Positions 3,013 through 63,846 are shown, numbered from the stretch's first letter. The stretch is 64,000 bases of DNA from Miltoncostaeaceae bacterium (GCA_963834875.1 CAWIDG010000025.1:61593-125592); one strand, 5' to 3'. A program made the numbers and translations. Notes: generated from the sequence alone by a model not told the origin.

Positions 3013-3108
3013 TTCCTCTCCCGTCTCCCGAGTCGCCTGGGATGATTGATCCGATGGCCGGTCGTGTGAAACGCCGATCGGCGGTGGAGCCACCACCGCG
3101 AGGCGTCG

Positions 3109-4658: not shown

Positions 4659-4709
4659 GGCCGACGGTCCTCTTTGGCGGGTCCGACGCTACTCCTGCCG
4701 GGGGGTGTT

Positions 4710-8749: not shown

Positions 8750-8756
8750 GGCCTGC

Positions 8757-12589: not shown

Positions 12590-14482
<1,893 letters not shown>

Positions 14483-14521
14483 CCGACCCGACCGACCGAC
14501 GAACAAGGAGGATCAGACACA

Positions 14522-14974: not shown

Positions 14975-15113
14975 ACCACGCCGACCCCCAGCGGGCTCCG
15001 GGGCCCCCGGCTCCGGAGCCCGAGGGCCCGGCCCATCCGGAGCCCGAGGCCGCCGGCCGGCCGCCGAGGCGCCGTCGCCCGCCGAGCAGAACGGCTCGGA
15101 GGAGCTCGCGCGC

Positions 15114-15578: not shown

Positions 15579-15589
15579 GGGGACGGGGC

Positions 15590-16682: not shown

Positions 16683-17116
16683 GCGCCCGCCGCCCCCCCG
16701 CGTTCCTCATCGGCCTCGCGGCCGAGCTCGCCGGGATGCATCCGCAGACGCTCCGCGTCTACGAGCGCCGCGGCCTGATCACGCCGGCTCGCAGTCCTCG
16801 GAACACGCGGCTCTACTCCGAGCAGGACGTCGCGCTGCTGCGGCGCATCCAGGAGCTCTCCGAGGAGGGCCTCAACCTGGCCGGCGTCGAGCGCGTGCTG
16901 AAGCTCGAGAAGCGGCTCGAGCGCGCCGAGCGCCGGATCCGGGACCTGGCCGACGAGCTGATGGAGACCACGGAGCGCCACCGCGCGGAGCTGGCGGCCG
17001 CGCGCGCGGCCCGCGGGCAGGTGATCGTGGCGGCACGGGACGAGACCGCCCTGGTGCCGCGCTACGCCCCGGCGGTGCCGCGCGTGACCACGACGACGAA
17101 GGGGGGGCGGGTCTGA
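16679..17116 (+). CDS. hspR: MerR-family heat-shock repressor HspR
   Basis: [62 protein letters not shown]. The ATG overlaps the dnaJ stop (ATGA). Confidence 0.9.
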
Positions 17117-19713
17117 TGGCGGTGGACAGGCCGACCGAGCGGGCCCAGCAGGCGATCGCCGAGTCGGCGCGCCTCGCGGGCGACCGCGGCAACCAGGTGG
17201 TCGAGCCCGAGCACCTGCTGCTCGCGCTCATCGACGCGCGCGAGGGCGTCGTGGAGCCGGTGCTCCAGCGGGCGGGCGCGGACCTGGCGGCGCTGCGCGC
17301 CGCGACGATGGCCGCGATCGAGCGCCGCCCCCAGGTCAGCGGCGCGGCCGCGGGCGCCGAGCTCTCGAACGCCTACCGGGCGGTCCTGCGGCGCGCCGGC
17401 CAGGAGGCCGAGGGGCTGTCGGACGAGTACATCTCCACCGAGCACCTGCTGCTGGCGCTGCTGGACGAGCCATCGCCCGCCCGCGAGGCGATGCGCGCGA
17501 GCGGGGTGACCCGCGACGGGCTGCTCGGGGCGCTGCAGTCGGTGCGCGGCTCGGCGCGGGTGACCGACCCCAACCCGGAGGACAAGTACCAGGCGCTCGA
17601 GCAGTACGGGCGCGACCTCACCGAGGCCGCGGAGCAGGGCGCGCTGGACCCGGTGATCGGCCGCGACGAGGAGATCAGGCGGGTCATCCAGGTGCTGTCC
17701 CGGCGCACGAAGAACAACCCCGTGCTGATCGGGGAGCCGGGCACCGGCAAGACCGCGATCGTCGAGGGCCTTGCCCAGCGGATCGTGGCCGGCGACATCC
17801 CCGAGGGCCTGGCCGGGAAGCGGGTCGTGGCCCTCGACATCGGCGGGCTGCTCGCCGGCGCGAAGTACCGCGGCGAGTTCGAGGACCGCCTCAAGGCCGT
17901 GCTCAAGGAGATCCAGGACGCCGCGGGCCAGGTCATCCTCTTCATCGACGAGCTGCACACGATCGTCGGGGCGGGGGCGGCCGAGGGCGCGGTGGACGCG
18001 GCCAACCTCCTGAAGCCCATGCTGGCGCGGGGCGAGCTGCGGGCGGTGGGCGCCACCACCCTCGACGAGTACCGCAAGCACGTCGAGAAGGACGCCGCCC
18101 TCGAGCGCCGCTTCCAGCCGGTGATGGTGGGCGAGCCCTCCGTCGAGGCGACGGTGGCGATCCTCCGCGGCCTGAAGGAGCGCTACGAGGTGCACCACGG
18201 CGTCCGCATCCAGGACGGCGCGCTCGTCGCCGCCGCCCGCCTGTCGGACCGCTACATCACGGCGCGCTTCCTGCCCGACAAGGCGATCGACCTCATCGAC
18301 GAGGCCGCCAGCCGCCTCCGCATCGAGATCGACTCGGTGCCTGCCGAGCTGGACGCCGTGCAGCGGCGGATCATGCAGCTCGAGATCGAGCAGCAGGCCC
18401 TCGAGCCCGAGACCGACCCCGGCTCGGAGGCGCGGCGGGACGCGATCGCCGAGGAGCTCGCGTCGCTGCGCGAGGAGGCCGACGCGATGCGGGCCCATTG
18501 GGAGCTCGAGAAGGCCACCATCGCGCGCATCCGCGAGGTGAAGGAGCAGATCGAGACGGCCCGCCAGGAGCTGGAGCGGGCCCAGCGCGACGGCGACCTC
18601 GAGGGGGCCGCGCGCCTGCAGTACGGCACCCTGCCCGAGCTCGAGAAGGCGCTCGAGGCGGCCAACGACGAGCTGGCCGAGCAGCAGGCGAGCCGCCGCA
18701 TGCTCAAGGAGGAGGTCGACGAGGAGGACGTGGCCGAGGTCGTCGCGTCCTGGACCGGCGTGCCGGTCAGCCGCCTGATGGAGGGCGAGGTCGAGAAGCT
18801 CCTGCACATGGAGGAGCGCCTGCACGAGCGGGTCGTCGGCCAGGACTCCGCCGTCTCCGCCGTCGCCAACGCCCTCCGCCGGGCGCGCGCCGGCCTCTCG
18901 GACCCGAGCCGGCCCATCGGATCGTTCATCTTCCTGGGCCCCACCGGGGTGGGGAAGACCGAGCTCGCCCGGGCGCTGGCCGAGTTCATGTTCGACGACG
19001 AGCGCGCCATGGTCCGCATCGACATGAGCGAGTACATGGAGCGCCACGCGGTCGCGCGCCTGATCGGCGCCCCGCCGGGCTACGTCGGCTTCGAGGAGGG
19101 CGGCCAGCTCACCGAGGCGGTGCGCCGCCGCCCCTACTCGGTGCTGCTGCTCGACGAGATCGAGAAGGCGCACGCCGACGTCTTCAACGTGCTCCTGCAG
19201 CTGCTCGACGACGGGCGCCTGACCGACGGCCAGGGCCGGGTCGTTGACTTCACCAACACCGTCGTGATCATGACCAGCAACATCGGCAGCCAGTTCCTGG
19301 CCGACGCCGGCGACGAGGAGATCGCGGAGGAGCGGGTGATCGGCGCGCTGCGCGACCACTTCCGCCCCGAGTTCCTCAACCGCGTCGACGAGATCGTCGT
19401 CTTCGGCCGCCTCGACCGCGAGCAGCTCGCGCAGATCGTCGAGCTGCAGGTGGCGCGGCTGCGCGACCGCCTGCGCGAGCGCGGGGTGGAGCTGGAGCTC
19501 ACCGAGGCCGCCGCCGGGCTCCTGGCGCGCGAGGGCTACGACCCGGTCTACGGCGCCCGCCCGCTCAAGCGGCTGGTGCAGCGCCGGATCGAGAACCCGC
19601 TCGCCCAGCGGCTCCTGGCGGGCGAGGTGCGCGACGGCGACGTCGTGGTGGTCGACGCGGAGGGCGACGAGCTGACCTTCGCCGTCGCCGAACCGGCGGT
19701 GGCAACCTCCTAA
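17116..19713 (+). CDS. clpB: ATP-dependent chaperone ClpB
   Basis: Two AAA+ modules ([15 protein letters not shown]; [13 protein letters not shown]) and a long middle coiled coil are present. The gene is intact at 865 aa, and its ATG overlaps the hspR stop (TGATG). Confidence 0.97.
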
Positions 19714-31042: not shown

Positions 31043-32062
31043 GTGCGGGTCTGGGTCAACATCACGAACTCGCCTCACGCGGTCATCTTCCGCCCGCTGA
31101 TCGCGCGGATGCGCGACCGCGGCCACGAGGTGACCGTGACCTCCCGCGAGTTCGCCCAGACCGTCGGGCTGCTCGACCGCTTCGGCATCCCCCACACGGT
31201 CGTGGGCGCGCATGGCGGGGCCTCGCGACGCGGCAAGGCACTCGCGATGGCGGGCCGCTCGGCCGCGCTCGCCCGCCTCGCGCGGGAGGAGCGCTTCGAC
31301 CTCGCCGTCGCCCACGGCAGCACCGACCAGCCGGCCGCTGCCCGTGTCGCCGGCACCCCGCAGGTGACGATGTTCGACTACGAGTTCGCCGCGGCGATGC
31401 ACCACTGGAACGGCCGCCTGGCGAGCCGGGTGCTCGTGCCGGCGGCGATCCCCGAGGAGGTCCTGTCGCGCTACGGCATGCGCCCGCCGCGCCTGGTCCG
31501 CTATCCGGGGCTGAAGGAGGAGTACTACCTCGCCGACCACGCGATCGACCCGGCGGTGGGGGACGAGCTGGGCCTGGATCGCGGGCGGATCCTCGCCGTC
31601 GTGCGCCCTCCGCCCGAGGTCACCCTGTACCACCGCGGCGCCGGCACCGACCTCTTCGCCGCCACCCTGGCCCGGCTGCTCGCGGCGCCGGAGGTGCAGA
31701 CCGTGGTGCTGCCCCGCACCGAGGAGCAGCGGCGGGCGCTCGCGGGAGGCCCGGCCGTCGTGCCCGAGCGGGCGATCGACGGGCCGAGCCTCGTGGCGGC
31801 GGCGGACCTCGTCGTGAGCGCCGGGGGCACGATGAACCGCGAGGCCGCCGCGCTGGGGGTGCCCGCCTACACCCCGTTCGCCGCGCGGCTGGGCGCGGTC
31901 GACCGGCTGCTCATCGCCGAGCGCCGCCTGAACCGGCTCGAGCGCCCCGAGGACGTCGCGCTCCGCCGCCGCGACCGGGGCCCGGCGCCGCCGTTGCGCG
32001 ACCCCGAGGCACTCGTGGACCTGATTCTCGACGCCCCCCGCGCTAGGGTGCCTGCCACGTGA
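31043..32062 (+). CDS. DUF354-family protein (GT-B-like fold)
   Basis: VRVWVNITNSPHAVIFRPLIARMRDRGHEVTVTSREFAQTVGLLDRFGIPHTVVGAHGG...VAHGSTDQ...MFDYEFA is the pattern I recognise as DUF354. Confidence 0.75.
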   Translation: MRVWVNITNSPHAVIFRPLIARMRDRGHEVTVTSREFAQTVGLLDRFGIPHTVVGAHGGASRRGKALAMAGRSAALARLAREERFDLAVAHGSTDQPAAARVAGTPQVTMFDYEFAAAMHHWNGRLASRVLVPAAIPEEVLSRYGMRPPRLVRYPGLKEEYYLADHAIDPAVGDELGLDRGRILAVVRPPPEVTLYHRGAGTDLFAATLARLLAAPEVQTVVLPRTEEQRRALAGGPAVVPERAIDGPSLVAAADLVVSAGGTMNREAAALGVPAYTPFAARLGAVDRLLIAERRLNRLERPEDVALRRRDRGPAPPLRDPEALVDLILDAPRARVPAT

Positions 32063-33969
32063 GCCTTGCCCCCCTCACCTGGCGCCCCCGTGCGCTCGCG
32101 CACCGCGCCGCCCAGGTGGCGGTTGACATGGCGCTCGTCACGGCCGCCTACTGGCTCGCGTACTACTTCCGCTTCGACGGCGACGTGCCCGGCCGCTACG
32201 AGCGGCTGTTCGTCGGGACGGTGGGCATCGTCATCGGCGTCAAGCTCGTCGTCTTCGTGGCGATGCGCTTCTACACGAAGTGGTGGCGCTTCACGAGCCT
32301 GCGCGACCTGCAGGCCATCCTGCTGGCGACGGCCGGGTCCAGCCTGATCCTGGCGGCGCTGCTCTCGACATGGCGCCCGGACGACCTCGTGCCCGTGCCG
32401 CGCGGCGTCCTGGCCTTCGACCTCCTGCTGACCCTCGTCCTGATCGGGGGCGCCCGCTTCGCGGTGCGCAGCGTGATCGAGCGGCCGCCGCGCTCCGAGC
32501 TCGTGAGCAGCGGCAAGGAGGTGCTGATCTGCGGCGCGGGCGACGCCGGCAACACCCTGCTGCGCGAGATGAAGCGGAACCGCGCGCTCGGCTACACGCC
32601 CGTCGGCCTCATCGACGACGACCCCCGGAAGCGCCGGCTGCGCGTGCAGGGCACCCGCGTGCGCGGCACCCGCGCCGACCTGCCGAGGGTGCTGCGCGAG
32701 GTGCACGTTGACGAGGTCATCATCGCCATGCCGTCCGCGCCGGGGCGGGTGCGCGAGGAGATCGTCCAGGCGTGCCGCGCCGCGGGCGTTCAGTGCACGA
32801 CCCTCCCGGGCCTGCCCGAGCTGATCACCGGCGAGGTCACGGTCAGCCAGCTGCGCGAGGTCCGCGTCGAGGACGTGCTGGGCCGCGCCGCGATCGAGGT
32901 CGACTTCGCCCGCGTCGCCCGCTACCTCAACGGCCGAGCGGTGCTCGTCACCGGCGCCGGCGGGTCGATCGGGCGGGAGCTCTGCCGGCAGGTGTCGGCC
33001 ACCGGCGCCCGCCGCCTGGTGATGGTCGACCACTCGGAGAACAACCTCTTCGAGATCGACCTCGAGCTGCGCGAGCGCGGCCACTCCGGGCTGCTGGTCC
33101 CGGTGATCGCCGACTGCAAGGACGCGTCCGCGATGGAGCGCCTCTTCGCGTCCGAGCGGCCCGAGATCGTGTTCCACGCGGCGGCGTACAAGCACGTGCC
33201 GATGATGGAGCTCAACCCGGTCCAGGCGATCGCCAACAACGCGCTCGCCACCGCGGTCCTGGCCGACCTCGCCGAGCGGTTCGCGGTGGAGCGGTTCTGC
33301 CTCATCTCCACCGACAAGGCCGTCGAGCCGAAGACCGTCATGGGCGCCTCCAAGGCTCTTGCGGAGCGGGTCGTCGAGGCGCGCGCCGGCGTCTCGGGCA
33401 CCCGCTTCGCGGCCGTGCGCTTCGGCAACGTCCTCGGCAGCTCCGGCTCGGTGCTCCCGATCTTCCGGCGCCAGATCGCCGAGGGCGGGCCCGTGACGGT
33501 GACGCACCCCGAGATGACGCGCTTCTTCATGACGATCCCCGAGGCGGTCCAGCTCGTCATCGAGGCCACCGGCATCGCCGAGGGCGGCGACATCTTCGTG
33601 CTCGACATGGGCGAGCCGGTGCGGATCATGGACCTCGCCCGTCGCACGATCGAGCTGGCGGGCCAGGACGTCGCGATCGAGATCGTCGGGATCCGGCCGG
33701 GCGAGAAGCTCCACGAGGAGCTGTTCAACGTGGACGAGGAGGTGCGCCCGACCCGCTACGGGAAGATCATGCGCGCCACCCGGCCGCCGCTCGACCCCGC
33801 GGTCCTGAGCGACGGCATCGACGAGGTCGCCCGCCGCATCGCCGCCGGCCCGCCCGAGTCGGTCGCCGACGCCCTGTGGTCCACCCTGCGCGGCGCAAGG
33901 ATCGCCGCGCCGGACGGCGAAACGAGGATGGCGCCGCCGACCGTCACCCATCCCCGGGAGAGCCCATGA
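32059..33969 (+). CDS. membrane-anchored polysaccharide biosynthesis protein CapD / PglF / WbpM-like nucleotide-sugar 4,6-dehydratase
   Basis: Four N-terminal TM helices are followed by VLICGAGDAGNTLL and VLVTGAGGSIGREL...FHAAAYKHVPMME...STDKAVEPKTVMGASK. The gene is intact at 636 aa, and its GTG overlaps the DUF354 stop (GTGA). Confidence 0.9.
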   Translation: MSLAPLTWRPRALAHRAAQVAVDMALVTAAYWLAYYFRFDGDVPGRYERLFVGTVGIVIGVKLVVFVAMRFYTKWWRFTSLRDLQAILLATAGSSLILAALLSTWRPDDLVPVPRGVLAFDLLLTLVLIGGARFAVRSVIERPPRSELVSSGKEVLICGAGDAGNTLLREMKRNRALGYTPVGLIDDDPRKRRLRVQGTRVRGTRADLPRVLREVHVDEVIIAMPSAPGRVREEIVQACRAAGVQCTTLPGLPELITGEVTVSQLREVRVEDVLGRAAIEVDFARVARYLNGRAVLVTGAGGSIGRELCRQVSATGARRLVMVDHSENNLFEIDLELRERGHSGLLVPVIADCKDASAMERLFASERPEIVFHAAAYKHVPMMELNPVQAIANNALATAVLADLAERFAVERFCLISTDKAVEPKTVMGASKALAERVVEARAGVSGTRFAAVRFGNVLGSSGSVLPIFRRQIAEGGPVTVTHPEMTRFFMTIPEAVQLVIEATGIAEGGDIFVLDMGEPVRIMDLARRTIELAGQDVAIEIVGIRPGEKLHEELFNVDEEVRPTRYGKIMRATRPPLDPAVLSDGIDEVARRIAAGPPESVADALWSTLRGARIAAPDGETRMAPPTVTHPRESP

Positions 33970-35794: not shown

Positions 35795-38141
<2,347 letters not shown>

Positions 38142-38176
38142 GTCGGATCTCCCGCGGAGGGTGGGACACGGGCGGC

Positions 38177-38236
38177 GGTTACCTCGCGTAACCCACCGGT
38201 GTCCGTGGAGGTTACCGCGAGTAACCAGCGATGCAA
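38177..38236 (-). promoter_or_regulatory. putative lon promoter (TTGCAT-16-TAACCT on the minus strand) embedded in two 17-bp palindromes GGTTAC-N5-GTAACC
   Basis: IR1 is at 38177-38193 (GGTTACCTCGCGTAACC) and IR2 at 38210-38226 (GGTTACCGCGAGTAACC), with centres 33 bp apart. On the lon strand, the -35 TTGCAT maps to 38231-38236 and the -10 TAACCT to 38209-38214. IR2 fills the spacer and the -10, and IR1 lies in the leader. Confidence 0.5.
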
Positions 38237-39042
38237 AGGGTTGTCCTGGCGGGACGCGTTCAGCCGGCGAGCTGGCACTTTGGACGTCGTTGGAGATTGC
38301 GCCCGCAGCCGCGACCTCGGCTGGAGAAGGTCACGGAGGCGCCAGCCGGCGCGCCTCGCCGGCGACTCGGTCGAGGATCGAAGCGCGAAGGGTCATGAGC
38401 AGGACGCATCAGGTCGTCGGTGCACGCCGGTCGAGGCACGCGCCGGCTCGGCGCTGCGCCGGCCGGCGCGCTGCCATGGCGTGCGGTCGCTGCCGTGCTC
38501 ACGCTCGAGGGCGCGCGCCAGCCGGAGGCCGGCGACGTACGGCTACTCGGAAGAAGGGTCGAGTCTTGCACTCGAGGGCTCGGCCAGCGTACGTCAGGCG
38601 ACGTACGCGCATGGCGCCTGATCGGGCTCGCGACGTCCGCACGTCCCCGAGCCGGCAAGCGCTACGACCAGGAGGCCCAGATCGCGATCGTCACGCTCGG
38701 CCTCGAGCCAGCACTGGCCTGCGGCTCGAGGTAAGCGCACCTACGACTGGAGCCGCCCACGACCGGGCGCTGACCACCGTCCTCGACGTACGGGCGTGCA
38801 AGACCGCCGTGGGCCCGACGGTCGCTCGGATCCGTCGCGGCCCTCGAGCGCCTGAGCGACCCGGTCGAGGCTCACGGAACGCGTCAGGACACCCGCAGGC
38901 CTGGCCCCGGTCGTCTGGAAGTACGAGGTCCGGGCGGCGAAGTTCATCTGCCCCGTCGTGCGGCGGCGGCGGGTCTCGGCCCCGGGTCCAGGGCGCCGGG
39001 ACGGGGCGTAGGCGAGCGGAGGCTGACGCCGGGCGCGGCAGT

Positions 39043-39963
39043 ATGGTTGCGCGCGTGGACCTCCGCCACCTCGTGACCCTCCGCACGGTGGTCAACAAGG
39101 GCTCCTTCTCGCAGGCTGCGGAGGAGCTCGAGATCTCCCAGCCCGCGGTGTCGTTCCAGATCCGGGCGCTGGAGGAGCGCCTGGGCCACCGCCTGCTCGA
39201 TCGCAGCGGCCGCCGGGTGACGGTGACCGAGGCCGGCGAGGTGGCCTACCGCTACGCGAAGCGGATGATCGGTCTCGAGGCGGAGCTCGAGCGCGAGATG
39301 GGCGAGATCGGCACGCGCGTGTCCGGCCGCCTGGTGCTGGGCTCGTCAACCGGGCCGGGAGAGCTGCTGCTGCCCCGCCTGCTGGGGGCCTTCCACGAGG
39401 CGTACCCCGACGTCCGCGTGAGCCTGATGGTCAGCGACACCCAGACCGTCTGCGAGCGGGTGCTCGACGACGAGCTGGAGCTCGGCGTCGTCGGCGCCGC
39501 CCGGCCCCAGCGGGGGCTCGAGTTCGAGCCCTTCCTGCGCGACGAGCTGGTCGTGATCGTCCCGCCCGGGCACCACCTGGCCGCCCAGCCCGCCGTGACC
39601 CTCGAGGGCCTCGTGGCCGAGCCGATGCTGCTCCAGCAGGAGGGCTCCGGCGTGCGCTCGGTCGTCGAGGCCGCCATGCGCGAGGGCGGCCTGCGCGATC
39701 GCGACCTGCACGTGGCGATGGAGCTCGGCCTGCAGCAGTCCGTCAAGGCCGCCGTGCTCGACGGGTTCGGGATCACCGTGATCTCGCGCCTGGCGGTGGA
39801 GCGGGAGGTCGCCGAGGGGAGCCTGGTTGCGCTGCGCCTGGAAGGGCCCGGGCTCGAGCGCCACTTCTTCTCCGTCCGCCATGCCGGGCGGACGCCGAAG
39901 CGCGTCACGTCGACGTTCCTCGACTTCGCCAAGGCCGAGCTCGGGGAGATCGCCGCTGCATAA
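39043..39963 (+). CDS. LysR-family transcriptional regulator
   Basis: VDLRHLVTLRTVVNKGSFSQAAEELEISQPAVSFQIRALEERLGHRLLDRSGRRVTVTEAG. It is intact and lies immediately upstream of the FAD/ComA/Sat operon. Confidence 0.9.
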   Translation: MVARVDLRHLVTLRTVVNKGSFSQAAEELEISQPAVSFQIRALEERLGHRLLDRSGRRVTVTEAGEVAYRYAKRMIGLEAELEREMGEIGTRVSGRLVLGSSTGPGELLLPRLLGAFHEAYPDVRVSLMVSDTQTVCERVLDDELELGVVGAARPQRGLEFEPFLRDELVVIVPPGHHLAAQPAVTLEGLVAEPMLLQQEGSGVRSVVEAAMREGGLRDRDLHVAMELGLQQSVKAAVLDGFGITVISRLAVEREVAEGSLVALRLEGPGLERHFFSVRHAGRTPKRVTSTFLDFAKAELGEIAAA

Positions 39964-40009
39964 GGCCCGCTTATTGGAAGCATCGGCGGCGGTCGGCTAG
40001 GCTCGCCGG

Positions 40010-41236
40010 GTGTCGAGGTCCAGCGACGCGCGCGCCGACGTGCTCGTGGTCGGGTCGGGGGGCGCCGGGATGTCGGCCGTCCTCGCCGCCCGCGCGGCCG
40101 GCGCCGGCGTGGTCGTGGTCACGAAGTCGGCCCTGGGCGCCGGCAACACCGGCCGTGCCCAGGGCGGCATCCAGGCGGCGATCGGCGAGGAGGACTCCAC
40201 CGAGTCGCACTTCGATGACACCTTCGCCGCCGGCCATCGCGCGGCGCGGCCGCAGCTCGTCCGCACCCTGACGGACGGGGGGCCCGGAGCCGTCGCCTGG
40301 CTCGAGTCGCTCGGGGTGGGATTCAGCCGCGATGAGGGCGAGCTGCGGCTCCTGCGCTGCGGCGGTGCCAGCAGGCCTCGGCTGCTGCAGGCGGGCGAGC
40401 GAACCGGGGCCGAGATGGTCAAGGCGCTGCGCGCGGCGGTGCGCGCGAGCGGCGCCGAGGTTCGCGAGGCGACCCGTCTCCTCGAGCTGGCGCCGCGCGG
40501 CGACGACTGGGTCGCGACGCTCGCGCCGAGCGGCAACGGCGGGCGGGCCACCCTGCGGGCCGGGGCCGTCGTGCTCGCCGCCGGCGGCGGCCTGCGCGGC
40601 GAGGCCGACGCCCTCGGGGTCGGCAGCACCAACCACCCCGACGCGACCCCCGAGGTGCTGCGGATGGCGCTGGAGCTGGGGGCGGAGGGCCGGGAGGTCA
40701 ACTCCTGGCAGCGCCACCCGACCGGCTCGCTCTGGCCCGAGGCGCTGGCCGGGTACGCGCTCCCGGAGACCACGCGCGGCTACGGCGCGACCCTCCACGA
40801 CGCCGAGGGCGAGCGCTTCGTCAACGAGCTCGCGCCGCGCGACGTGGTCGCCCAGGGGATCATCGACGCCGTCGCGGCGGGCCGCGGGGCGGCCGCCCCG
40901 GACGGCCAGGTGGGCGTCTGGCTCGACACTCCGGCGATCGACCGCGAGAACGGCGCCGGCTTCACCGCCGACCGCCTGGCCTACGTCCACAATCGGTACC
41001 TCAAGGCGGGGCTCGACATCACCCGGGAGCGTGTGCTCGTCTATCCCGTGCTGCACTACCGCAACGGGGGGCTTGCGATCGACGAGCGCGCGGCGACCAC
41101 GCTTCCGGGCCTGTTCGCCGCGGGCGAGATCGCCGGCGGCGTGCACGGCTCCAACCGCCTGATGGGCAACTCGCTGCTCGACACGGTCGTCTACGGGCGC
41201 CGCGCCGGCGCCTCGGCCGCGGAGGCCGCCGCATGA
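40010..41236 (+). CDS. FAD-binding flavoprotein of the succinate dehydrogenase / fumarate reductase / L-aspartate oxidase / AprA superfamily (short form, 408 aa)
   Basis: DVLVVGSGGAGMSAVLAA is the dinucleotide fold. RAQGGIQAA, WQRHPTG and GLFAAGEIAGGVHGSNRLMGNSLLDTVVYGRRAG are present. The C-terminal helical domain of the long family members is absent. Confidence 0.8.
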   Translation: MSRSSDARADVLVVGSGGAGMSAVLAARAAGAGVVVVTKSALGAGNTGRAQGGIQAAIGEEDSTESHFDDTFAAGHRAARPQLVRTLTDGGPGAVAWLESLGVGFSRDEGELRLLRCGGASRPRLLQAGERTGAEMVKALRAAVRASGAEVREATRLLELAPRGDDWVATLAPSGNGGRATLRAGAVVLAAGGGLRGEADALGVGSTNHPDATPEVLRMALELGAEGREVNSWQRHPTGSLWPEALAGYALPETTRGYGATLHDAEGERFVNELAPRDVVAQGIIDAVAAGRGAAAPDGQVGVWLDTPAIDRENGAGFTADRLAYVHNRYLKAGLDITRERVLVYPVLHYRNGGLAIDERAATTLPGLFAAGEIAGGVHGSNRLMGNSLLDTVVYGRRAGASAAEAAA

Positions 41237-42063
41237 CGATCGACGCGGGCCCCATGAGCACCGAGCTCGGGACCGCCCCCGGGGCGGGCTTCCTCTCGCT
41301 CCCGGGACGCCCGCCGAAGCCGCGCCAGGTCGGGGTGACGCACGTCATCGACAAGGGCCTCAGCCTCCCCGCCGTCGAGGGGGTCCTCGAGGCGAGCGGG
41401 GACTACATCGACATCGTGAAGCTCGGCTGGGGCACCGCCTACGTGACGCGCAACCTGCGCGAGAAGCTCGCGCTCTTCCGCGACGCGGGCATCCCGGTGG
41501 TGCTCGGGGGGACGTTCTGGGAGATCTGCCAGTCCCAGCGGAAGCTCGATGACTGGCGGCGCTGGGTGAGCGACCTCGGGCTGCAGCACGTCGAGATCTC
41601 GGACGGCACGATCACGCTGGCCCACGACGCCAAGCTCGAGCACATCAGCCGGCTGGCGCAGGACTTCGTCGTCCTCAGCGAGGTCGGCTCCAAGGACCTC
41701 GCGACGGTCATCGCGCCCTACCGCTGGGTCGAGATGATCGAGGCCGAGCTGCGGGCGGGGGCCTGGAAGGTCATCACGGAGGCCCGCGAGACCGGCACCG
41801 CCGGCATCTTCCGGGGCGACGGCGAGGTCAGGATGGGCCTCATCGACGAGATCGTGCACGCCATCGACCCGAACCGACTGATCTTCGAGGCGCCCCTGAA
41901 GGCGCAGCAGGTCTGGTTCATCCGCAAGTTCGGCCCCAACGTCAACCTGGGGAACATCCCACCCGACGAGGTGATACCGCTGGAGACACTACGGCTCGGC
42001 CTGCGCGCCGACACGCTGCTCGACGCCACGACCACCGGGAACGTCAACGGAGCGGGGATTTGA
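41233..42063 (+). CDS. comA: (2R)-phospho-3-sulfolactate synthase (ComA family)
   Basis: KPRQVGVTHVIDKGL...DYIDIVKLGWGTAYV...GGTFWE...VEISDGTI...LSEVGSKD...EARETGTAGIF...LIFEAPLKAQQVWFIRKFGPNVNLGNI is the ComA-family pattern. The ATG overlaps the upstream stop (ATGA). Confidence 0.85.
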   Translation: MTIDAGPMSTELGTAPGAGFLSLPGRPPKPRQVGVTHVIDKGLSLPAVEGVLEASGDYIDIVKLGWGTAYVTRNLREKLALFRDAGIPVVLGGTFWEICQSQRKLDDWRRWVSDLGLQHVEISDGTITLAHDAKLEHISRLAQDFVVLSEVGSKDLATVIAPYRWVEMIEAELRAGAWKVITEARETGTAGIFRGDGEVRMGLIDEIVHAIDPNRLIFEAPLKAQQVWFIRKFGPNVNLGNIPPDEVIPLETLRLGLRADTLLDATTTGNVNGAGI

Positions 42064-43229
42064 CCCCCGCCGCCGCGACGCCCGGGCCCATCGCCCCGCA
42101 CGGGGGCGCGCTCGTCGAGCGCTTCGACGACTCGCTGGACGAGGGGGGCGGGCGGCCCCGGGTCACCCTCACCGCCCGCCAGCAGGCCGATCTCGACCTC
42201 ATCGCCGCGGGCGCCCTCTCGCCGCTCGACGGCTTCATGGGCCGCGAGGCCTACGAGGCCGTGGTCGAGGACATGCGCCTGCCGAGCGGGCTCGCGTGGT
42301 CCGTGCCGGTGACGCTGGGGGTCGCACCCGACGAGCTGGAGGGCGCCGGCACCGCTGACGAGGTGGAGCTCGTGGACGAGGGCGGGCGCTTCCTCGGCGT
42401 CATGGAGGTCACCGACCGCTACGAGACCGACCCCGCCCGCGAGGCGCGCCTGGTCTTCGGCACGGAGGACGCCGCGCACCCCGGGGTCGCCTCGCTCTAC
42501 GCCCACGGGACGACGGCCCTCGCGGGCCCGGTGCGGGTGGCGGCCCGGATGCCGCTCGACCCGGCCGCCGTGCCGTTCCTGCTCGACCCGCGGCGCTCGC
42601 GGGAGGAGTTCGACGCACGCGGCTGGCGGAGCGTGGTCGGCTTCCAGACGCGCAACCCGATCCACCGGGCGCACGAGTACCTCACCAAGGTCGCGCTCGA
42701 GACGGTCGACGGCCTCTTCATCCACCCGCTGGTCGGCGAGACCAAGAGCGACGACATCCCCGCCGACGTGCGGATGCGCTGCTACGAGGTGCTGATCGAG
42801 GGCTACTACCCGCAGGAGCGGGTGGTGCTGGGCGTCCTGCCGGCGGCCATGCGCTACGCGGGGCCCCGCGAGGCCGTGCTGCACGCGATCATGCGCCAGA
42901 ACTACGGCTGCACCCACTTCATCGTGGGCCGCGACCACGCGGGCGTGGGCGACTACTACGGCACCTACGACGCCCACCGCGTCTTCGACGACATCAGCGC
43001 GGACGAGCTGGCGATCCAGCCGCTCTTCTTCGAGCACTCCTTCTGGTGCAACCTGACCGGCGGGATGGCGACGACGAAGACCTCCCCCGCGGCGCCCGAG
43101 GACCGCGTCTTCCTCTCGGGCACGAAGGTCCGCGAGATGCTCGGCCGCGGCGAGATCCCGCCGGTGGAGTTCACCCGCCCCGAGGTCGCGAAGGTGCTCA
43201 TCGAGGCGTACTCGGGGACGCCCGCCTAG
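42060..43229 (+). CDS. sat: sulfate adenylyltransferase (ATP sulfurylase), no APS-kinase domain
   Basis: FQTRNPIHRAHEYL, HPLVGETKSDDIP and GCTHFIVGRDHAGVGDYYGTYDAH are present. The TTG start overlaps the comA stop (TTGA). Confidence 0.9.
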   Translation: MTPAAATPGPIAPHGGALVERFDDSLDEGGGRPRVTLTARQQADLDLIAAGALSPLDGFMGREAYEAVVEDMRLPSGLAWSVPVTLGVAPDELEGAGTADEVELVDEGGRFLGVMEVTDRYETDPAREARLVFGTEDAAHPGVASLYAHGTTALAGPVRVAARMPLDPAAVPFLLDPRRSREEFDARGWRSVVGFQTRNPIHRAHEYLTKVALETVDGLFIHPLVGETKSDDIPADVRMRCYEVLIEGYYPQERVVLGVLPAAMRYAGPREAVLHAIMRQNYGCTHFIVGRDHAGVGDYYGTYDAHRVFDDISADELAIQPLFFEHSFWCNLTGGMATTKTSPAAPEDRVFLSGTKVREMLGRGEIPPVEFTRPEVAKVLIEAYSGTPA

Positions 43230-43236
43230 TCAACGA

Positions 43237-43259
43237 TCGACCCCGCGCTCAGGGGTCGA
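43237..43259. terminator. stem-loop between convergent sat and P460-like genes
   Basis: TCGACCCC-gcgctca-GGGGTCGA forms an 8-bp GC-rich stem. The loop contains the minus-strand stop codon, and there is no U-tract. Confidence 0.35.
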
Positions 43260-43875
43260 GCGGCGTGAAGACCCAGTCGGTGTCCTCGGCGATCTGGTGG
43301 CAGCCCCAGCAGGTCGCGCCGGTCAGCGAGGCGTCCGTCGCGAAGGCGGCGTCCGGGCTGGAGCGCTTGTACTCCACGAACTCCCAGTCGCCGTGGGCGG
43401 GGTCGACCCCCTGGATCTTGCGCATGATCGCGGCGAGCGTGATGGCGCCGTCGGTGCGGGCCGCCTTCACCAGGATCGTGCCCACCGGGAACTCGCCGCC
43501 GCGGGTCAGCCGCGCACGCGGGACGCTCACGTAGACGTCCTTGGTGCCGCGGTGGGCGTCGAAGCCGACCCGCCGGGTCTGCGGCGAGTCGGGCGGGATC
43601 GGCTCGGCGTTGAGGCGGTCCCAGCGCTGGAAGCCCGCCGTGAACGCCGGCAGCCCGGCGAGCGCCTTGGGTCTGGGCTTCGGCTTCGGCGCGGGGGCGG
43701 GCGCCGGCGCCGTGGTCGCGGGCGGGGCGGTCGCCGCGGGCGGGGCCGTCGTCGCGTCGCCGGCGCCGGCGGAGCCCGCGTCGTCGCCCCCGCAGGCCGC
43801 CAGGCCGAGCCCGAGCCCGGTGGCGAGCAGCAGCGCGGCGGCGCGGCGGCGCGGGTCCACGGCCCCCATCCTCAC
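43249..43875 (-). CDS. lipoprotein with a cytochrome P460-like c-heme domain
   Basis: The lipobox is LGLGLAAC, followed by a Pro/Ala/Thr linker. GDWEFVEYK...ATCWGCHQIAEDTDWVFT carries a CxxCH heme motif in the P460-family context. Confidence 0.7.
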   Translation of the reverse strand: MRMGAVDPRRRAAALLLATGLGLGLAACGGDDAGSAGAGDATTAPPAATAPPATTAPAPAPAPKPKPRPKALAGLPAFTAGFQRWDRLNAEPIPPDSPQTRRVGFDAHRGTKDVYVSVPRARLTRGGEFPVGTILVKAARTDGAITLAAIMRKIQGVDPAHGDWEFVEYKRSSPDAAFATDASLTGATCWGCHQIAEDTDWVFTPLDP

Positions 43876-43932: not shown

Positions 43933-45957
43933 TTGAGCCCCCCGGCGGGCGCGGGCATGATGGGCGCGGCCGTGGCCCGTCCCCGCCCCGTCATCGCGCT
44001 CGCCACCGTGGCTCTCGCCGCCGGCTCCGTCGCCCCCGCGGCCGCCGCTCCCGCGACCGGCGACCGGCCCGCGGGCAGCGTCTCAACCTGGGCCCACGAG
44101 CTGAACCAGAACGAGCTCCCGCGGTGGAACCCGAGTACGGCGCCGGTGATCCCGGCGCGCCGCTGGTACGGGATCGTCAACGGCATCCTGAGCGAGTCGG
44201 GCGCGAACGGCCTCTGGTTCAGCGGCCCGAGCGCCCTGCCCTTCCCGCCGCTGCCCTTGAGCCCGAAGGAGCCGGTCGGCTGGCGCACCCCGGCGCGGTT
44301 CTCGGCCCAGTTCCGGCGCACGGGCCTGCGGTGGGACGTGGCGGTCGAGGTGTGGGCCGCCCGCAGGGCGCTCCAGCGGAAGACCGCGACGGTCTCCGAC
44401 CCGACCGCCGACCCCACCGCCTACACGCGCAGGCTGTCGCTGCTCGACCCCGGCTACCGGCGCGAGGCGCTGCGCGAGATCCGCAGGATCGTCCCACGCC
44501 TGCGGAACGCGCCCTTCGTCAACTTCTACACCGGCAGCGACGAGCCGATCGCGCTGCTCCCTCGCGGCCGGGCGCGCTCGAGCGCCTTCGGCCGCCGCCT
44601 GGCGCGCGACTTCCGCCGCGCGACCGGCTTCTCGCTGCCGAACCCGGCCGCCCGCCCGAGCACCTCCGACCGCGAGCGGCTGCGCTGGCTCGCCTGGTCG
44701 CGCTTCTCGGGCGACCGGTTCTTCGGGATGAAGGAGGAGCAGGCGCGCCTCATCCGCCGGCTGGACCCGGACGCGGTCGTCAGCCCCAACGACTACGGCT
44801 TCATCGACGGCTTCATCCCCTGGGACTACTCCCGCCTGGGCAGCTTCGCCGACGTCGTGGAGGCCGATCCCTACGTGAGCTACGCGGAGCGCGACAGGGC
44901 CGGGCGGGGCCGCTACAACCCCGGCTTCGGCGCCAAGCTGCTGTCCGATCTGACGGGCAGGCGAACGCGGATCATCGTCCAGGGCTTCGACTACTCGCGC
45001 TACCAGCCGGTGCCCGGCGACCTGTGGACCTGGAGCGCGCAGGCGCTGCGCGCCGGCGCCACCGACATCAGCTTCTTCGCGTCGGACAACCCGCGCTTCA
45101 CCAACCGGCGCCTGCACCGGGCGATGCTCGACGTGGCACGCAACCTGCGCGGGACCCGCCTCCCCGCGCCCCCGGCCGACCCAGAGCAGATCGTCCTCTA
45201 CGCGACCGCCAGCGAGGGTCAGGGCCAACCCGACCGCGCGGGGAACCTGCGATACCGCACCGATGGGGACGCCATCTACACGACCTACTCGCTGCTCGGC
45301 GAGCTGGCCGGCGCCGCCTTCAGCTTCGACGCCGACACCCGCCTGGCCGCCCAGCCCGCCCGCCTCGCGGCCGCGCGGACGATCTGGCTCCCGCGCGCCG
45401 ACACCCTGGACGCCCCGCTCGCCGACCAGCTCGCGGCCTGGGTCCGGGGCGGCGGCACGCTGGTCGTCACCGACCCCGAGGCCTTCACCAGGACCTCGGG
45501 GGGCGCGCCGCTGACCGCGGTCCGCGACGCGCTGATCGGTGCCCCGCTCGGCCCGCCGCGCCCCGGCCGGATCCTGCAGGTGGACCAGGGCGCGCTCGGC
45601 GCCGGCCTGCCCGACGACCTCCTGAGCGTGCCGATCGACGCCGTCCAGGCCCGCGCATTCGCGGGCGTCCCGGCCGGCGGCTCGGTCGTCGCCCGCTTCA
45701 TCGACGGCGCCCCCGCAGCGATCGCCCGTCCGGTCGGCGCCGGGCGGGTGCTGGCCTTCGCGTCGGACCCGATGGTGCCATCGGTGCTGGACGAGCCGCT
45801 CGACCTGGCCAGGCTCGCCGCCGCGATCCACCGCTGGGCCGGCGGTGCGCTCGACCATCCCGCCTGGCGCTACCGCATCCCCGGGGACCCCCAGCCGACC
45901 CGCCTGCCGTGGTCGGACGCCGTCGAGCCCGAGGCGGCGCGGGCCGGCTTGCCCTAG
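43933..45957 (+). CDS. secreted hypothetical protein, GH42-like / glutamine-amidotransferase-like architecture (674 aa)
   Basis: A signal-like N-terminus (VIALATVALAAGSVAPAAAAP) is present and the gene is intact. The region TIWLPRADTLDAPLADQLAAWVRGGGTLVVTD resembles the trimerisation/GATase-like domain of GH42 enzymes. Catalytic residues were not verified. Confidence 0.5.
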   Translation: MSPPAGAGMMGAAVARPRPVIALATVALAAGSVAPAAAAPATGDRPAGSVSTWAHELNQNELPRWNPSTAPVIPARRWYGIVNGILSESGANGLWFSGPSALPFPPLPLSPKEPVGWRTPARFSAQFRRTGLRWDVAVEVWAARRALQRKTATVSDPTADPTAYTRRLSLLDPGYRREALREIRRIVPRLRNAPFVNFYTGSDEPIALLPRGRARSSAFGRRLARDFRRATGFSLPNPAARPSTSDRERLRWLAWSRFSGDRFFGMKEEQARLIRRLDPDAVVSPNDYGFIDGFIPWDYSRLGSFADVVEADPYVSYAERDRAGRGRYNPGFGAKLLSDLTGRRTRIIVQGFDYSRYQPVPGDLWTWSAQALRAGATDISFFASDNPRFTNRRLHRAMLDVARNLRGTRLPAPPADPEQIVLYATASEGQGQPDRAGNLRYRTDGDAIYTTYSLLGELAGAAFSFDADTRLAAQPARLAAARTIWLPRADTLDAPLADQLAAWVRGGGTLVVTDPEAFTRTSGGAPLTAVRDALIGAPLGPPRPGRILQVDQGALGAGLPDDLLSVPIDAVQARAFAGVPAGGSVVARFIDGAPAAIARPVGAGRVLAFASDPMVPSVLDEPLDLARLAAAIHRWAGGALDHPAWRYRIPGDPQPTRLPWSDAVEPEAARAGLP

Positions 45958-61220: not shown

Positions 61221-62267
61221 TCAGGTCGTGAGCGCGCCCTCCGCGAACGCGAGCGCCCGCCGCGCCAGGTGCCCCACGCCCTCCTCCAGCGCCGCGAAGG
61301 TCGGGTGGTCGGCGACCCCGGCCCGGAAGCGCAGGTACGACGTCTCCATGATCACGGCGATCTTCCAGCCGCCCAGCGCCGCGTACCACCGCGCGTCGGG
61401 CACCGGCGCACCGGTCAGCCCCTCGTAGCGACGGCGCAGCTCGGCGCGGCCGGAGAAGCCAGGCAGGTGCGTCACGTTGGCGACGGGGATCGCGAAGGGC
61501 TCCTCGCCCTCCTCGCGCCAGAAGTAGAGCAGCCACCCGAGGTCGGCGAGGGGGTCGCCCAGCGTCGAGAGCTCCCAGTCGATCACCGCCGCGACGCGCG
61601 CCGGCGAGGCGGGCGCGAGGATGACGTTGTCGAGCTTGAGGTCGCCGTGCAGGAGCGCCGGCGCCGGCGAGTCCGGCACGTGGTCTGCGAGCCACGCGCC
61701 CACCGCGTCGAGCTCGGGCAGCGCGCGGCCCCGCACCGCCTCCCGCTGCTCGCCCATGCGCCGGAGCTGACGCGCGAGGTACCCGTCCGGGCGCCCGTGG
61801 CCCTCCAGGCCGACCGCGCCGACGTCGATGGCGCGCAGGGCGACCAGCACGTTGACGAGGGCCTCGCCCATGCGCCGGCGGTCCGCGCGGCCCGCCAGGG
61901 CGGGGGGAAGCGCGGTGCGGACGCTGTGCCCGTGGACCCGCTCCATCAGGTAGAACGGCGCGCCGAGCACGTCCGGGTCCTCGCAGAGCGCGAGCGGCCG
62001 GGGGACCGGCACGCCCGTCCCGGCATCCGTGAGCGCCGCCAGCACCCGGTGCTCGCGCACGACGTCGTACGCCCCCCGCGGCAGCTCGCCGCGCGGCGGG
62101 CGGCGGAGGACCACCTCCCAGCCGGTGCCCGAGAGGAGGTACGTCAGGCACGACTGCCCCTCGCCGAGCCGGGCGATCGTGAAGGGGCCGTCGAGCTCCG
62201 GGACGTTGGCGGCGAGGAAGGCGGCGACCGCTGCGGGGTCGACCGCCGCCGGCTCGTCCGCCGTCAA
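61221..62267 (-). CDS. APH-family phosphotransferase (acyl-CoA dehydrogenase-associated kinase type)
   Basis: IARLGEGQSCLTYLL...FYLMERVHG...ALLHGDLKLDNVIL...AVIDWELSTLGDPLADLGW. The TTG start overlaps the upstream stop (TTGA). Confidence 0.8.
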   Translation of the reverse strand: MTADEPAAVDPAAVAAFLAANVPELDGPFTIARLGEGQSCLTYLLSGTGWEVVLRRPPRGELPRGAYDVVREHRVLAALTDAGTGVPVPRPLALCEDPDVLGAPFYLMERVHGHSVRTALPPALAGRADRRRMGEALVNVLVALRAIDVGAVGLEGHGRPDGYLARQLRRMGEQREAVRGRALPELDAVGAWLADHVPDSPAPALLHGDLKLDNVILAPASPARVAAVIDWELSTLGDPLADLGWLLYFWREEGEEPFAIPVANVTHLPGFSGRAELRRRYEGLTGAPVPDARWYAALGGWKIAVIMETSYLRFRAGVADHPTFAALEEGVGHLARRALAFAEGALTT

Positions 62268-63846
62268 CCGACTCGCCGCTCGCGTCCGGCCCACTCGCCC
62301 TCGCGCAGCACGAACTTCTGGACCTTGCCGGTGGAGGTCTTCGGCAGCTCGCCGAAGGCGACGGCCACCGGGCACTTGAAGTGCGCGAGGTGCTCGCGGC
62401 AGAAGTCGATGATCGCCTCGGCGCTCGTCTCCGCGCCGTCCTTGAGGGCCACGAACGCCTTCGGGCGCTCGCCCCAGCGGTCGTCTGGGATCGGCCACGA
62501 CCGCGCACTCGAGCACCGCCGGGTGGCGGCAGACGACCTGCTCGACCTCGATCGTGGAGATGTTCTCGCCGCCCGAGATCACCACGTCCTTGATGCGGTC
62601 GCGCAGCTCGATGTACCCGTCGGGGTGCCAGACGGCCACGTCGCCGGTGTGGAGCCAGCCTCCGCGGAACGCCTCCTCGGTGGCCTCCGGGTCGTCGTAG
62701 TAGCCGCGCATCACCGTGTTGCCGCGGGCCACGACCTCGCCGAGCGTGGCGCCGTCCCGCGGGACGTCCTCCATCCGCGCGTCCACCACCCGGACCGGGT
62801 CCGCGAGCAGGTGGCTGTGGCCCTGGCGCGCGAGCAGCCGCGACCGGGCGTCCTCGTCGAGGGCGGACCATCCGGGCTGCTCCACGCAGCTCGTGATCGG
62901 CGTGTAGGTCTCGGTGAGCCCGTAGAGGTGGATCGGGTGGAAGCCCAGCTCGCGCAGGCGGGCGAGCAGCGTCGGCGAGGGCGGCGCGCCGCCCATCGCG
63001 ACGGTCACGGCGCGCGCCAGCGGCGCGCGCCGCGGCGTGGTGGACGACGCCGATCTGCACCGTCGGCGCGCTGCACATGTGCGTGACGCCCTCCGCCTCG
63101 AGCAGCTCCCAGACGCGCGCCGGATCGGGCGCGCGCAGGCACACGTGCGTGCCGCCGACGGCCGTGACGGCCCAGGTGAAGCACCAGCCGTTGCCGTGGA
63201 ACATCGGGAGCGTCCACAGGTAGACGGTCCCATCGCCGAGGCCGGTGTGGAGGACGTCGCCGAGGGCGTTGAGGTGGGAGCCCCGGTGCGTGCACATGAC
63301 GCCCTTCGGCCGCCCGGTGGTGCCCGAGGTGTAGTTGATCGAGATCAGCTCGTCCTCGTGCTCCGGCGCGCCGCCCTGCGGTCCGCTCGGGTCAGCGGTG
63401 GCGAGCAGGTCCTCGTACGGATCGCCCGGGGCGCCCGTGTCGTCGACCCGGACCACCTGCAGCGCCGACAGGTCGAGGCCCTCCAGCGACCCGGTGAGCG
63501 CCGCGTCGACCAGCAGGAACCGCGCGCCCGAGTGGCCGAGGATGTAGCCGATCTCGGGCGCGGTGAGGCGAACGTTGACCGGCACCATCACCCCGCCGGC
63601 GAGGGGCACGCCGAAGTGCGCCTCGAGCATCGCCGGCGTGTTCGGGCACAGCAGCGCCACGCGGTCGCCGCGCGCGAGCCCGGCCGCGCGCAGGGCGCTC
63701 GCCAGCCGCCCGCAGCGGCCGGCCAGCTCCGCGTAGCCGTACCGGCGCGCCCCGTGGACGACCGCCGTGCGCTCGGGGAAGACGCGCGCCGACCGGTCCA
63801 GGAAGCTGACCGGGGTGAGCTCGGTGCGGTGGACGGGGCGGGTCAC
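62264..63846 (-). CDS. AMP-dependent acyl-CoA synthetase/ligase, 2 apparent frameshifts (about 63030 and 62490)
   Basis: INYTSGTTGRPKGVMCTH lies in frame 1. HLYGLTETY...WLHTGDVAV...ELRDRIKDVVISGGENI lies in frame 2. The tail, PDDRWGERPKAFVALKDG...ELPKTSTGKVQKFVLR, lies in frame 3 (ORF 62264..62452). Confidence 0.88.

Follow-up and report, generated by a model that had tools for sequence, protein, structure and literature searches.

We analysed a 64,000-nucleotide stretch of DNA from a Miltoncostaeaceae bacterium (GCA_963834875.1, CAWIDG010000025.1:61593-125592), which we call the window, with a base composition of about 75% G+C. Our subject is an operon at positions 39043-43229 in which a short flavoprotein of a family that binds flavin adenine dinucleotide (FAD) is encoded next to a phosphosulfolactate synthase (ComA) and an ATP sulfurylase (Sat), behind a LysR-family regulator. 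The comparison with related loci suggests, with about even chances of being right, that this operon is a pruned member of a widespread, uncharacterised cassette turning sulfate and phosphoenolpyruvate (PEP) into a C3 sulfonate, and that the FAD protein is its sulfoacrylate reductase. The genes of the operon are the following.

39043-39963, plus strand: LysR-family regulator, 306 aa; Pfam HTH_1 (3e-23) and LysR_substrate (2.7e-47)
40010-41236, plus strand: short FAD_binding_2 flavoprotein, 408 aa, GTG start; PF00890 (1.5e-59)
41233-42063, plus strand: phosphosulfolactate synthase ComA, 276 aa; PF02679 (8.5e-88, 294 bits)
42060-43229, plus strand: homo-oligomeric ATP sulfurylase Sat, 389 aa, TTG start; PUA_2 and ATP-sulfurylase domains

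The flavoprotein, ComA and Sat genes are translationally coupled. By direct reading of the sequence, the stop codon of the flavoprotein and the start of ComA share the ATGA at 41233-41236, and the stop of ComA and the TTG start of Sat share the TTGA at 42060-42063, where a GGAG precedes the start by 8-14 nt. The G+C content at third codon positions (GC3) of the three open reading frames (ORFs) is 0.95-0.99, typical of real genes at 75% GC. The LysR gene is co-directional, ends 46 nt before the flavoprotein start, and its product presumably controls the operon; its score of 256 bits on NCBIfam NF040786 ("selenium metabolism-associated LysR") is borderline to the cutoff of 250. ComA scores slightly under the cutoff of TIGR03849 (248, cutoff 280), and we assign it to its family on the full-length PF02679 match and on the solved structures of B. 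subtilis YitD (1u83, 1.5e-64) and M. jannaschii ComA (1qwg, 1.5e-48), which it matches full-length, over residues 21-262. Sat is above the curated cutoffs of both NF003166 (511.8 vs 387) and TIGR00339 (392.9 vs 323). A preliminary description made from the sequence alone had reported the LysR gene and the three-gene operon, their coordinates, the two overlaps and the four protein families; the ORFs and the sequence reading agree with it exactly, and the profile hidden Markov model searches (Pfam, NCBIfam) uphold the families.

The flavoprotein scores far under the cutoff of every NCBIfam equivalog. The best matches are nadB (TIGR00551, 248.5 vs 452.75) and TfrA (245 vs 718), followed by sdhA/frdA (TIGR01812, 206 vs 567) and TcuA (NF006130, 81 vs 369), and the closest solved relatives are the mycobacterial Sdh1 A subunit, the Shewanella flavocytochrome c3 (Fcc3) and E. 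coli NadB. Tested for membership, it falls outside NadB, SdhA/FrdA, flavocytochrome c, TcuA and AprA, and it has the catalytic core of the Frd/Sdh/NadB superfamily, that is, the fold, the substrate site and the Glu/Arg proton pathway. The preliminary description had placed it in the superfamily of AprA, the alpha subunit of the reductase of adenosine 5'-phosphosulfate (APS). That label is true only in a broad sense, the flavoprotein being closest to Frd, Sdh and NadB: AprA is missing from the 53 PDB sequence matches at E<1e-10 and from the top 50 Foldseek structural matches, which are headed by Fcc3, FrdA, SdhA and NadB.

In a residue alignment, the His-Arg-His-Arg dicarboxylate site of Frd and NadB is kept complete as His236, Arg277, His349 and Arg383, together with Glu253 and Arg256. 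Asn46 stands at the position of the histidine that carries covalent FAD, which predicts that FAD is bound non-covalently. Two positions are distinctive: Cys117 stands where NadB has Glu121 (E. coli numbering) and Fcc3 has Met236, and Pro252 takes the loop position of FrdA Thr244. NadB Glu121 binds the substrate amino group. The alignment to NadB spans residues 7-403 of 540, and the chain stops at the point where NadB and FrdA continue into their C-terminal helical domain, so that the preliminary description was right to call the 408-aa protein short of its C-terminal domain. No SdhB/FrdB gene adjoins the flavoprotein gene. An AlphaFold (AF2) model built from a 36-sequence alignment has a predicted local distance difference test score (pLDDT) of 94.8 and a predicted template modelling score (pTM) of 0.93, and in Foldseek it superposes on FrdA with a query TM-score (TMq) of 0.90 and a root-mean-square deviation (rmsd) of 2.0-2.1 Å, on SdhA with a TMq of 0.87-0.90 and on NadB with 0.87. 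Because the Frd/NadB site is complete, the model FrdA-like and AprA absent from the top matches, the modelled protein looks built for a dianion shaped like succinate, fumarate or aspartate, not for APS. We considered whether a small residue at position 117 might mark sulfonate binding and dropped the idea, as the N-extended family described below, which is not linked to ComA, has Gly, Ala or Ser there.

In an exhaustive profile search, the Miltoncostaeales orthologues form a single 50% cluster; next come proteins of about 400 aa at 35-43% identity, and then a family with about 85 extra N-terminal residues. A neighbour-joining tree (200 bootstraps) separates the short and N-extended families from NadB-like and Sdh/Frd-like sequences in 200/200 replicates. 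The Miltoncostaeales sequences group with P0122 and the Gaiellales sequences in 200/200 replicates, the group linked to XcbC-like lyases (see below) is found in 197/200, and all short forms make one clade in 136/200. All aligned short forms except P0145 have Pro at the FrdA Thr244 position. Cys117 marks the Thermoleophilia subclade, and P0150, outside it, has Cys too. With its 408 aa, its P252 and the ComA gene overlapping its stop codon, the window protein has the features of the ComA-linked short clade.

The N-extended sister family (530-560 aa) is represented by 73 metagenome loci (L090, L092-L166) and by P0124, P0129 and P0138. ComA is beside its members in none of the 73 loci, and the conserved extension of about 85 aa has no Pfam match. 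Class-I fumarase genes adjoin the N-extended flavoprotein in at least 16 of these 73 loci, as expected for ordinary pairs of a fumarase and a soluble fumarate reductase. In P0132, a relative of 727 aa at 42% identity, the flavoprotein is fused at its N-terminal side to a 4Fe-4S dicluster ferredoxin domain, which may hint at how related enzymes receive electrons.

For the conservation of the neighbourhood, we scanned one genome per species and found 77 orthologues of the flavoprotein, all in Miltoncostaeales or Thermoleophilia metagenome-assembled genomes (MAGs), with identities of 69-94% across the 77 species. The window flavoprotein shares 99% identity with a protein labelled Miltoncostaeaceae and 84% with its counterpart in Miltoncostaea marina, in keeping with an actinobacterium (Actinomycetota) of the class Thermoleophilia, from soil or water. 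Neighbours were counted by tblastn, with testable loci as denominators. ComA adjoins the flavoprotein in 70/71 loci and LysR in 72/74, and this arrangement of LysR, FAD protein and ComA is far beyond chance. Sat is adjacent in only 27 loci and missing from the other 40 of 67; in 29 of those 40, a secreted GH42-like gene directly follows ComA (a GH42-like gene is seen in 54 loci overall). One locus in a Thermoleophilia MAG (L021) has in place of Sat a CysD (NF009214, 543 bits) at 8085-9005, 4 nt after ComA. CysD, which is not an orthologue of Sat, forms the small subunit of the second known type of ATP sulfurylase, and here it takes over the place of the sulfate-activating enzyme in the operon. 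Since Sat is present in 27/67 loci only and CysD stands once in its place, LysR-FAD-ComA makes up the conserved core, to which sulfate activation is added at the 3' side as an option. The expectation that the whole neighbourhood would be conserved thus holds for FAD-ComA and only by about half for Sat.

Outside Miltoncostaeales, short flavoproteins occur in cassettes with more enzymes. The architectures that we find are given here, with the genes in order.

L086 (P0131, 40% identical), within a glycan locus: FAD protein, FumA-like, FumB-like, ComA, His_Phos_1 phosphatase, PIG-L
L084 (P0125): CysH-type reductase, ATP-grasp, FAD protein, XcbC-like Lyase_1
L088 (metagenome scan headed by P0131): ATP-grasp, FAD protein, XcbC-like Lyase_1, ComA, CysH
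L087 (metagenome scan headed by P0131): ComA, FAD protein, XcbC-like Lyase_1 fused to an AMP-binding ligase
L168 and L169 (P0139 and P0137): FAD protein, XcbC-like Lyase_1, ComA
L173 (7568-15110), L174 and L175, Gaiellales: HIT, FAD protein, FumA-like, FumB-like, ComA, CysH, CysC (APS kinase), Sat, TauE, then Wzy_C

The genes are tightly packed, with gaps of -11 to +18 nt in L086, L088, L168 and L169, and CysH is present in the Bacteroidota-like cassettes. All five Lyase_1 proteins are XcbC-like: in blastp they match Xanthobacter XcbC at 1e-77 to 1e-98 vs 1e-8 to 1e-14 for XcbD, the NCBIfam score is 444 bits for CoM_syn_XcbC vs 283 for argH, and their best plasmid matches are in the coenzyme M (CoM) clusters of Xanthobacter, Nocardioides JS614, Mycolicibacterium chubuense and Methylocystis. 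XcbC has been shown experimentally to convert phosphosulfolactate to sulfoacrylate by elimination of phosphate (PMC9457059). In L087, the fusion (2371-5394, 1007 aa) joins the XcbC-like lyase to an adenylate-forming ligase, which suggests that an acid product is activated for ligation. The short clade is thus linked to ComA in at least four independent architectures, in several distantly related lineages, together with a potential sulfoacrylate-producing enzyme. By family assignment, every fuller cassette has one of two candidate, non-homologous routes to sulfoacrylate, either by an XcbC-like lyase or by a phosphatase and a fumarase-like dehydratase.

The cassettes of Gaiellales, the sister order, are the most informative for the window, and the closest outgroup sequences (L089 and L091) are also Gaiellales. 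Their CysH is well above the cutoff of NF002537 (276 bits vs 154), and their FumA-like subunit is still above the cutoff of ordinary fumarate hydratase (319 vs 276). The Gaiellales HIT protein could be the phosphosulfolactate phosphatase, or could act in APS turnover. The window proteins are 53% (FAD protein), 64% (ComA) and 59% (Sat) identical to their Gaiellales counterparts, and the active-site residues of the Miltoncostaeales and Gaiellales flavoproteins are identical. Because the FAD protein, ComA and Sat of the window match the Gaiellales set in order, we read the Miltoncostaeales operon as a pruned derivative of a fuller cassette. It has lost the dehydratase pair that separated the FAD protein from ComA, as well as the CysH and CysC genes that stood ahead of Sat, downstream of ComA. 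A further Gaiellales contig, L172 (11203-13480), has a 457-aa fusion of Fumerase_C to ComA, which we withdrew as Rosetta-stone evidence because the three other Gaiellales contigs have separate genes and L172 has further frameshifts. In the same contig the Fumerase N gene is split and the genes for APS kinase and TauE are in fragments, and these breaks are probably frameshifts of a long-read assembly.

The window itself lacks the intervening enzymes. A Pfam scan that took in about 50 window ORFs with gene-like GC3 finds no PAPS_reduct (CysH), APS_kinase (CysC), Fer4 (AprB), ComB or Ldh_2 (ComC), and tblastn of all 64 kb with CysH, APS kinase, fumarase, XcbC-like, His_Phos and ATP-grasp queries finds nothing, the XcbC-like query having no match at E<=0.1. 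The Pfam scans also find no Lyase_1 or pyridoxal phosphate (PLP) enzyme near the operon. The preliminary description had listed CysH, APS kinase, AprB, ComB and ComC as missing, and all five are missing within this scope, with the absence of ComB and ComC resting solely on the Pfam scan of the selected ORFs.

In the pathway that we propose, Sat, by its equivalog-level family membership, would activate sulfate to APS, and an ordinary CysH-type reductase encoded outside the window would make sulfite, by analogy with the fuller cassettes. ComA would then join sulfite to PEP to give (2R)-phosphosulfolactate, the established reaction of its family. Phosphosulfolactate would be converted to sulfoacrylate, in the related cassettes by the XcbC-like phosphate lyase or by a phosphatase and a class-I fumarase-like dehydratase; the window has no enzyme for this step, which would be supplied in trans or by the flavoprotein itself. 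The 408-aa flavoprotein would reduce sulfoacrylate to 3-sulfopropanoate, as its gene context suggests. Finally, because the cassettes sit among ATP-grasp and adenylating ligases, DegT aminotransferases, glycosyltransferases, Wzy and TauE, the C3 sulfonate would probably be exported or joined to a cell-surface glycan.

The central assignment draws on a chemical parallel. Fumarate, malate and succinate have their sulfonate isosteres in sulfoacrylate, 3-sulfolactate and 3-sulfopropanoate, respectively, and by Cahn-Ingold-Prelog (CIP) bookkeeping (R)-sulfolactate shares its spatial configuration with L-malate. Since candidate sulfoacrylate-making enzymes recur in the fuller cassettes, sulfoacrylate is an isostere of fumarate, and the partner is Frd-like, reduction of sulfoacrylate is the simplest activity for the flavoprotein, and from these sequence comparisons we put it at roughly one chance in two. 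We favour the biosynthetic direction because the relatives carry assimilatory CysH and CysC genes. For the step that the window lacks, a housekeeping fumarase acting in trans is a conservative guess, made because the active sites are identical to those of Gaiellales, where the FumA-like subunit still scores as a regular fumarate hydratase. Of the two roles that the preliminary description had offered for the flavoprotein, action on a C3 sulfonate made by ComA is the one that the comparative genomics supports.

Several points weigh against this reading. Genes for XcbC-like, fumarase-like and phosphatase proteins are absent from the window and from all 77 Miltoncostaeales loci (within about 6 kb), so that the proposed substrate, sulfoacrylate, has no encoded source here. 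No domain or partner for electron input to the flavoprotein is evident. The direction, reduction as opposed to oxidation, is argued only by analogy from the CysH and CysC of relatives. The neighbour-joining bootstrap for the monophyly of the short clade is only 68%. Lastly, we know of no 3-sulfopropanoyl glycans.

The first of these points is what makes it conceivable, if unlikely, that the Miltoncostaeales flavoprotein acts directly on the ComA product with no sulfoacrylate-forming partner. It could eliminate phosphate from phosphosulfolactate and reduce the product, desaturate C2-C3 to give sulfo-enolpyruvate phosphate, or oxidise sulfolactate to sulfopyruvate in an FAD-dependent reaction that replaces ComB/ComC. 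The FAD-ComA core persists at nearly every testable locus with no lyase or dehydratase nearby, both genes are intact at 69-94% identity over the 77 species, which implies that the pair is functional, and Frd-type active sites are able to hydrate fumarate and oxidise malate. Set against this, an active site identical to that of the Gaiellales orthologues, which have a fumarase-like partner, does not indicate a change of substrate, and the fumarate-hydratase score of the Gaiellales FumA-like subunit makes a housekeeping fumarase in trans plausible. That the flavoprotein itself processes phosphosulfolactate, by elimination and reduction or by C2-C3 desaturation, so that PEP and sulfite would become a C3 sulfonate through just two enzymes, ComA and the FAD protein, seems to us quite unlikely. 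Such a route might possibly use the clade-specific Cys117 for thiol-based electron input and, if true, would be a flavoenzyme reaction with no described precedent.

The sulfoacrylate reductase assignment also has to be weighed against the opposite direction of flow, in which the operon is catabolic or detoxifying, imported 3-sulfopropanoate or sulfolactate is oxidised, ComA runs in reverse to sulfite and PEP, and Sat runs in reverse from sulfite to sulfate. Degradation of 3-sulfopropanoate through sulfoacrylate to sulfolactate is reported for Roseovarius by a thesis (cited in PMC11489063), and a reversed ComA has been proposed for SAR11 (PMC11796062). Control by LysR is typical of catabolic operons, and the Gaiellales cassette includes TauE. 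We consider this very unlikely, given that the CysH and APS kinase of the relatives are assimilatory enzymes that do not operate oxidatively, that the window has no sulfolactate kinase, APS reductase or hydratase, and that the cassettes are placed in glycan-biosynthesis loci with ligases.

The other role in the preliminary description, with the flavoprotein as the source of sulfite from APS, amounts to a non-canonical APS reductase, AprA-like and working without AprB, that links Sat to ComA. Within the window, which has neither CysH nor AprB, Sat and ComA connect only through such an APS-to-sulfite step, and AprA belongs to the same broad flavoprotein superfamily. The context speaks otherwise: Sat is missing from 40 of the 67 orthologous loci, and the clade co-occurs with the canonical CysH, CysC and Sat in the Gaiellales operon and with CysH in L088 and L084. 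Because the standard enzyme fills the APS-to-sulfite step wherever that step is encoded in cis, the flavoprotein is no stand-in for an APS reductase. The full Frd/NadB dicarboxylate tetrad and the absence of AprA among the sequence and structural matches point the same way, and we reject this role on context, active site and structural neighbours, as extremely improbable. Finally, an identity of the flavoprotein as a soluble fumarate reductase or aspartate oxidase of the ordinary kind, with a functionally meaningless ComA neighbour, as its public annotation (L-aspartate oxidase) and its top NCBIfam matches nadB and TfrA would have it, is scarcely credible with equivalog scores so far below cutoff (248 vs 453 for nadB), Cys in place of NadB Glu121 and Pro in place of FrdA Thr244, a ComA linkage that recurs in several distant lineages and four architectures with overlapping genes, and no such linkage at any of the 73 loci of the N-extended sister family.

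Downstream of the operon, the window has the following features.

43237-43259, no strand: 8-bp GC-rich inverted repeat TCGACCCC-GCGCTCA-GGGGTCGA, read from the sequence
43249-43875, minus strand: cytochrome P460-like lipoprotein ORF; PF16694 (1.4e-11), LAAC lipobox and CWGCH haem motif
43933-45957, plus strand: secreted GH42-like protein, 674 aa; partial match to PF02449 (8e-09)

The inverted repeat sits between the convergent Sat and P460-like genes and is a possible bidirectional terminator without a T-run; a T-run-dependent terminator scan made no call there. The P460-like gene, whose relation to the operon the preliminary description had left undecided, is present in 6 of the 77 loci, and we reject it as part of the operon and regard it as unrelated. 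Whether the GH42-like gene belongs to the operon unit is uncertain. Glycan genes flank the operon in the window: DegT at 29017, DUF354, a PglF-like dehydratase at 32059-33969, GH42-like, GH39-like and BacA.

On the upstream side, the Lon gene (35795-38141, minus strand) adjoins the operon and is split by a 1-nt frameshift with its junction near 37871. Residues 1-90 of M. marina Lon map to 38141-37872 and residues 91-777 to 37870-35798 in a different frame; the frameshift is either a sequencing error or a pseudogene. In the spacer of about 900 bp between Lon and LysR (38142-39042) we found neither a convincing ORF nor an Rfam match nor a sigma-70-like promoter, and the spacer is not conserved in relatives, with a match of only about 50 bp and a gap of 110 bp in M. 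marina. A heat-shock cluster of DnaK, Hsp20, GrpE, DnaJ and ClpB is found about 20 kb upstream, at 12590-19713. HSA32, the plant homologue of ComA, is a heat-stress protein, and the proximity of heat-shock genes to the ComA operon is probably a coincidence. Elsewhere in the window, a 670-aa ORF at 61221-63233 (minus strand) has an unusual architecture, in which an APH-type phosphotransferase domain is combined with the C-terminal portion of an AMP-binding enzyme.

To our knowledge, bacterial ComA-type sulfonate synthesis is understood only for coenzyme M and spore sulfolactate. In our reading, the window adds to this, in reduced form, a new branch of the sulfonate biosynthesis that starts from phosphosulfolactate. 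The literature that we searched describes no sulfoacrylate reductase, no sulfolactate dehydratase and no FAD-ComA(-Sat) cluster, and within it the preliminary description's expectation of an undescribed route holds. In this literature, sulfoacrylate occurs only as the XcbC product (PMC9457059) and in the thesis-cited catabolic route (PMC11489063), and 3-sulfopropanoate is otherwise a product of 2,3-dihydroxypropane-1-sulfonate (DHPS) fermentation and an electron acceptor of Bilophila. The cassette family, which we see in Thermoleophilia, Bacteroidota-like and other bacteria, would reuse ComA, often with XcbC, together with an Frd-like flavoprotein and frequently a ligase, in glycan loci. If the reading is true, it adds two new activities, a sulfoacrylate reductase and a fumarase-like sulfolactate dehydratase, so that a malate-fumarate-succinate module would have been recruited for sulfonate isosteres. 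It would also give a biosynthetic source for 3-sulfopropanoate, so far known only as a degradation product and a respiratory substrate of gut sulfite reducers, and possibly, in the very abundant actinobacteria of soil, sulfonated glycans of a new class. The many proteins of the clade now annotated as L-aspartate oxidase would be corrected.

Among known systems, AprAB-Sat has in common with the operon the broad flavoprotein superfamily and, in the window, an adjacent Sat; it differs in that here there is no AprB, AprA is not a near neighbour, Sat is optional, and canonical CysH accompanies the clade in relatives. The soluble fumarate reductases and NadB (Fcc3, FrdA, NadB, yeast Osm1, UrdA) have the same two-domain FAD and capping fold (TMq 0.78-0.90) and the same catalytic residues, and Fcc3 and NadB also have non-covalent FAD. 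The window protein differs from these enzymes by having no haem, FMN (flavin mononucleotide) or Fe-S partner domain and no C-terminal helical domain, by the Pro and Cys substitutions, by forming a separate clade, and by having ComA as its partner instead of genes of the tricarboxylic acid (TCA) cycle or of nicotinamide adenine dinucleotide (NAD) synthesis. The archaeal ComA-ComB-ComC pathway and B. subtilis YitD/YitC have the first enzyme in common with the window, with sulfite from sulfate assimilation in both, whereas the window has an Frd-superfamily flavoprotein as companion and, in the Pfam scan, neither ComB nor ComC. The proposed degradation pathway of Roseovarius nubinhibens (thesis cited in PMC11489063) shares its intermediates with our scheme, as well as the formal redox step that links 3-sulfopropanoate and sulfoacrylate; it is catabolic, runs in the opposite direction and does not involve ComA, and the text consulted names no genes for it. 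A parallel in the first steps is the CoM pathway of Xanthobacter autotrophicus Py2 (XcbB, which is ComA, XcbC, XcbD, XcbE and XcbA; PMC9457059), which likewise starts with ComA and passes through phosphosulfolactate. XcbB and the ComA of the window share 38% identity, XcbC-like lyases are encoded beside relatives of our flavoprotein, and the xcb cluster, too, has a LysR gene next to it. XcbC, XcbD, XcbE and XcbA are all missing from the window, and the xcb cluster has no Frd-like flavoprotein. The two systems would part at sulfoacrylate, which in the Xcb pathway receives cysteine on the way to CoM and here is predicted to be reduced to 3-sulfopropanoate.

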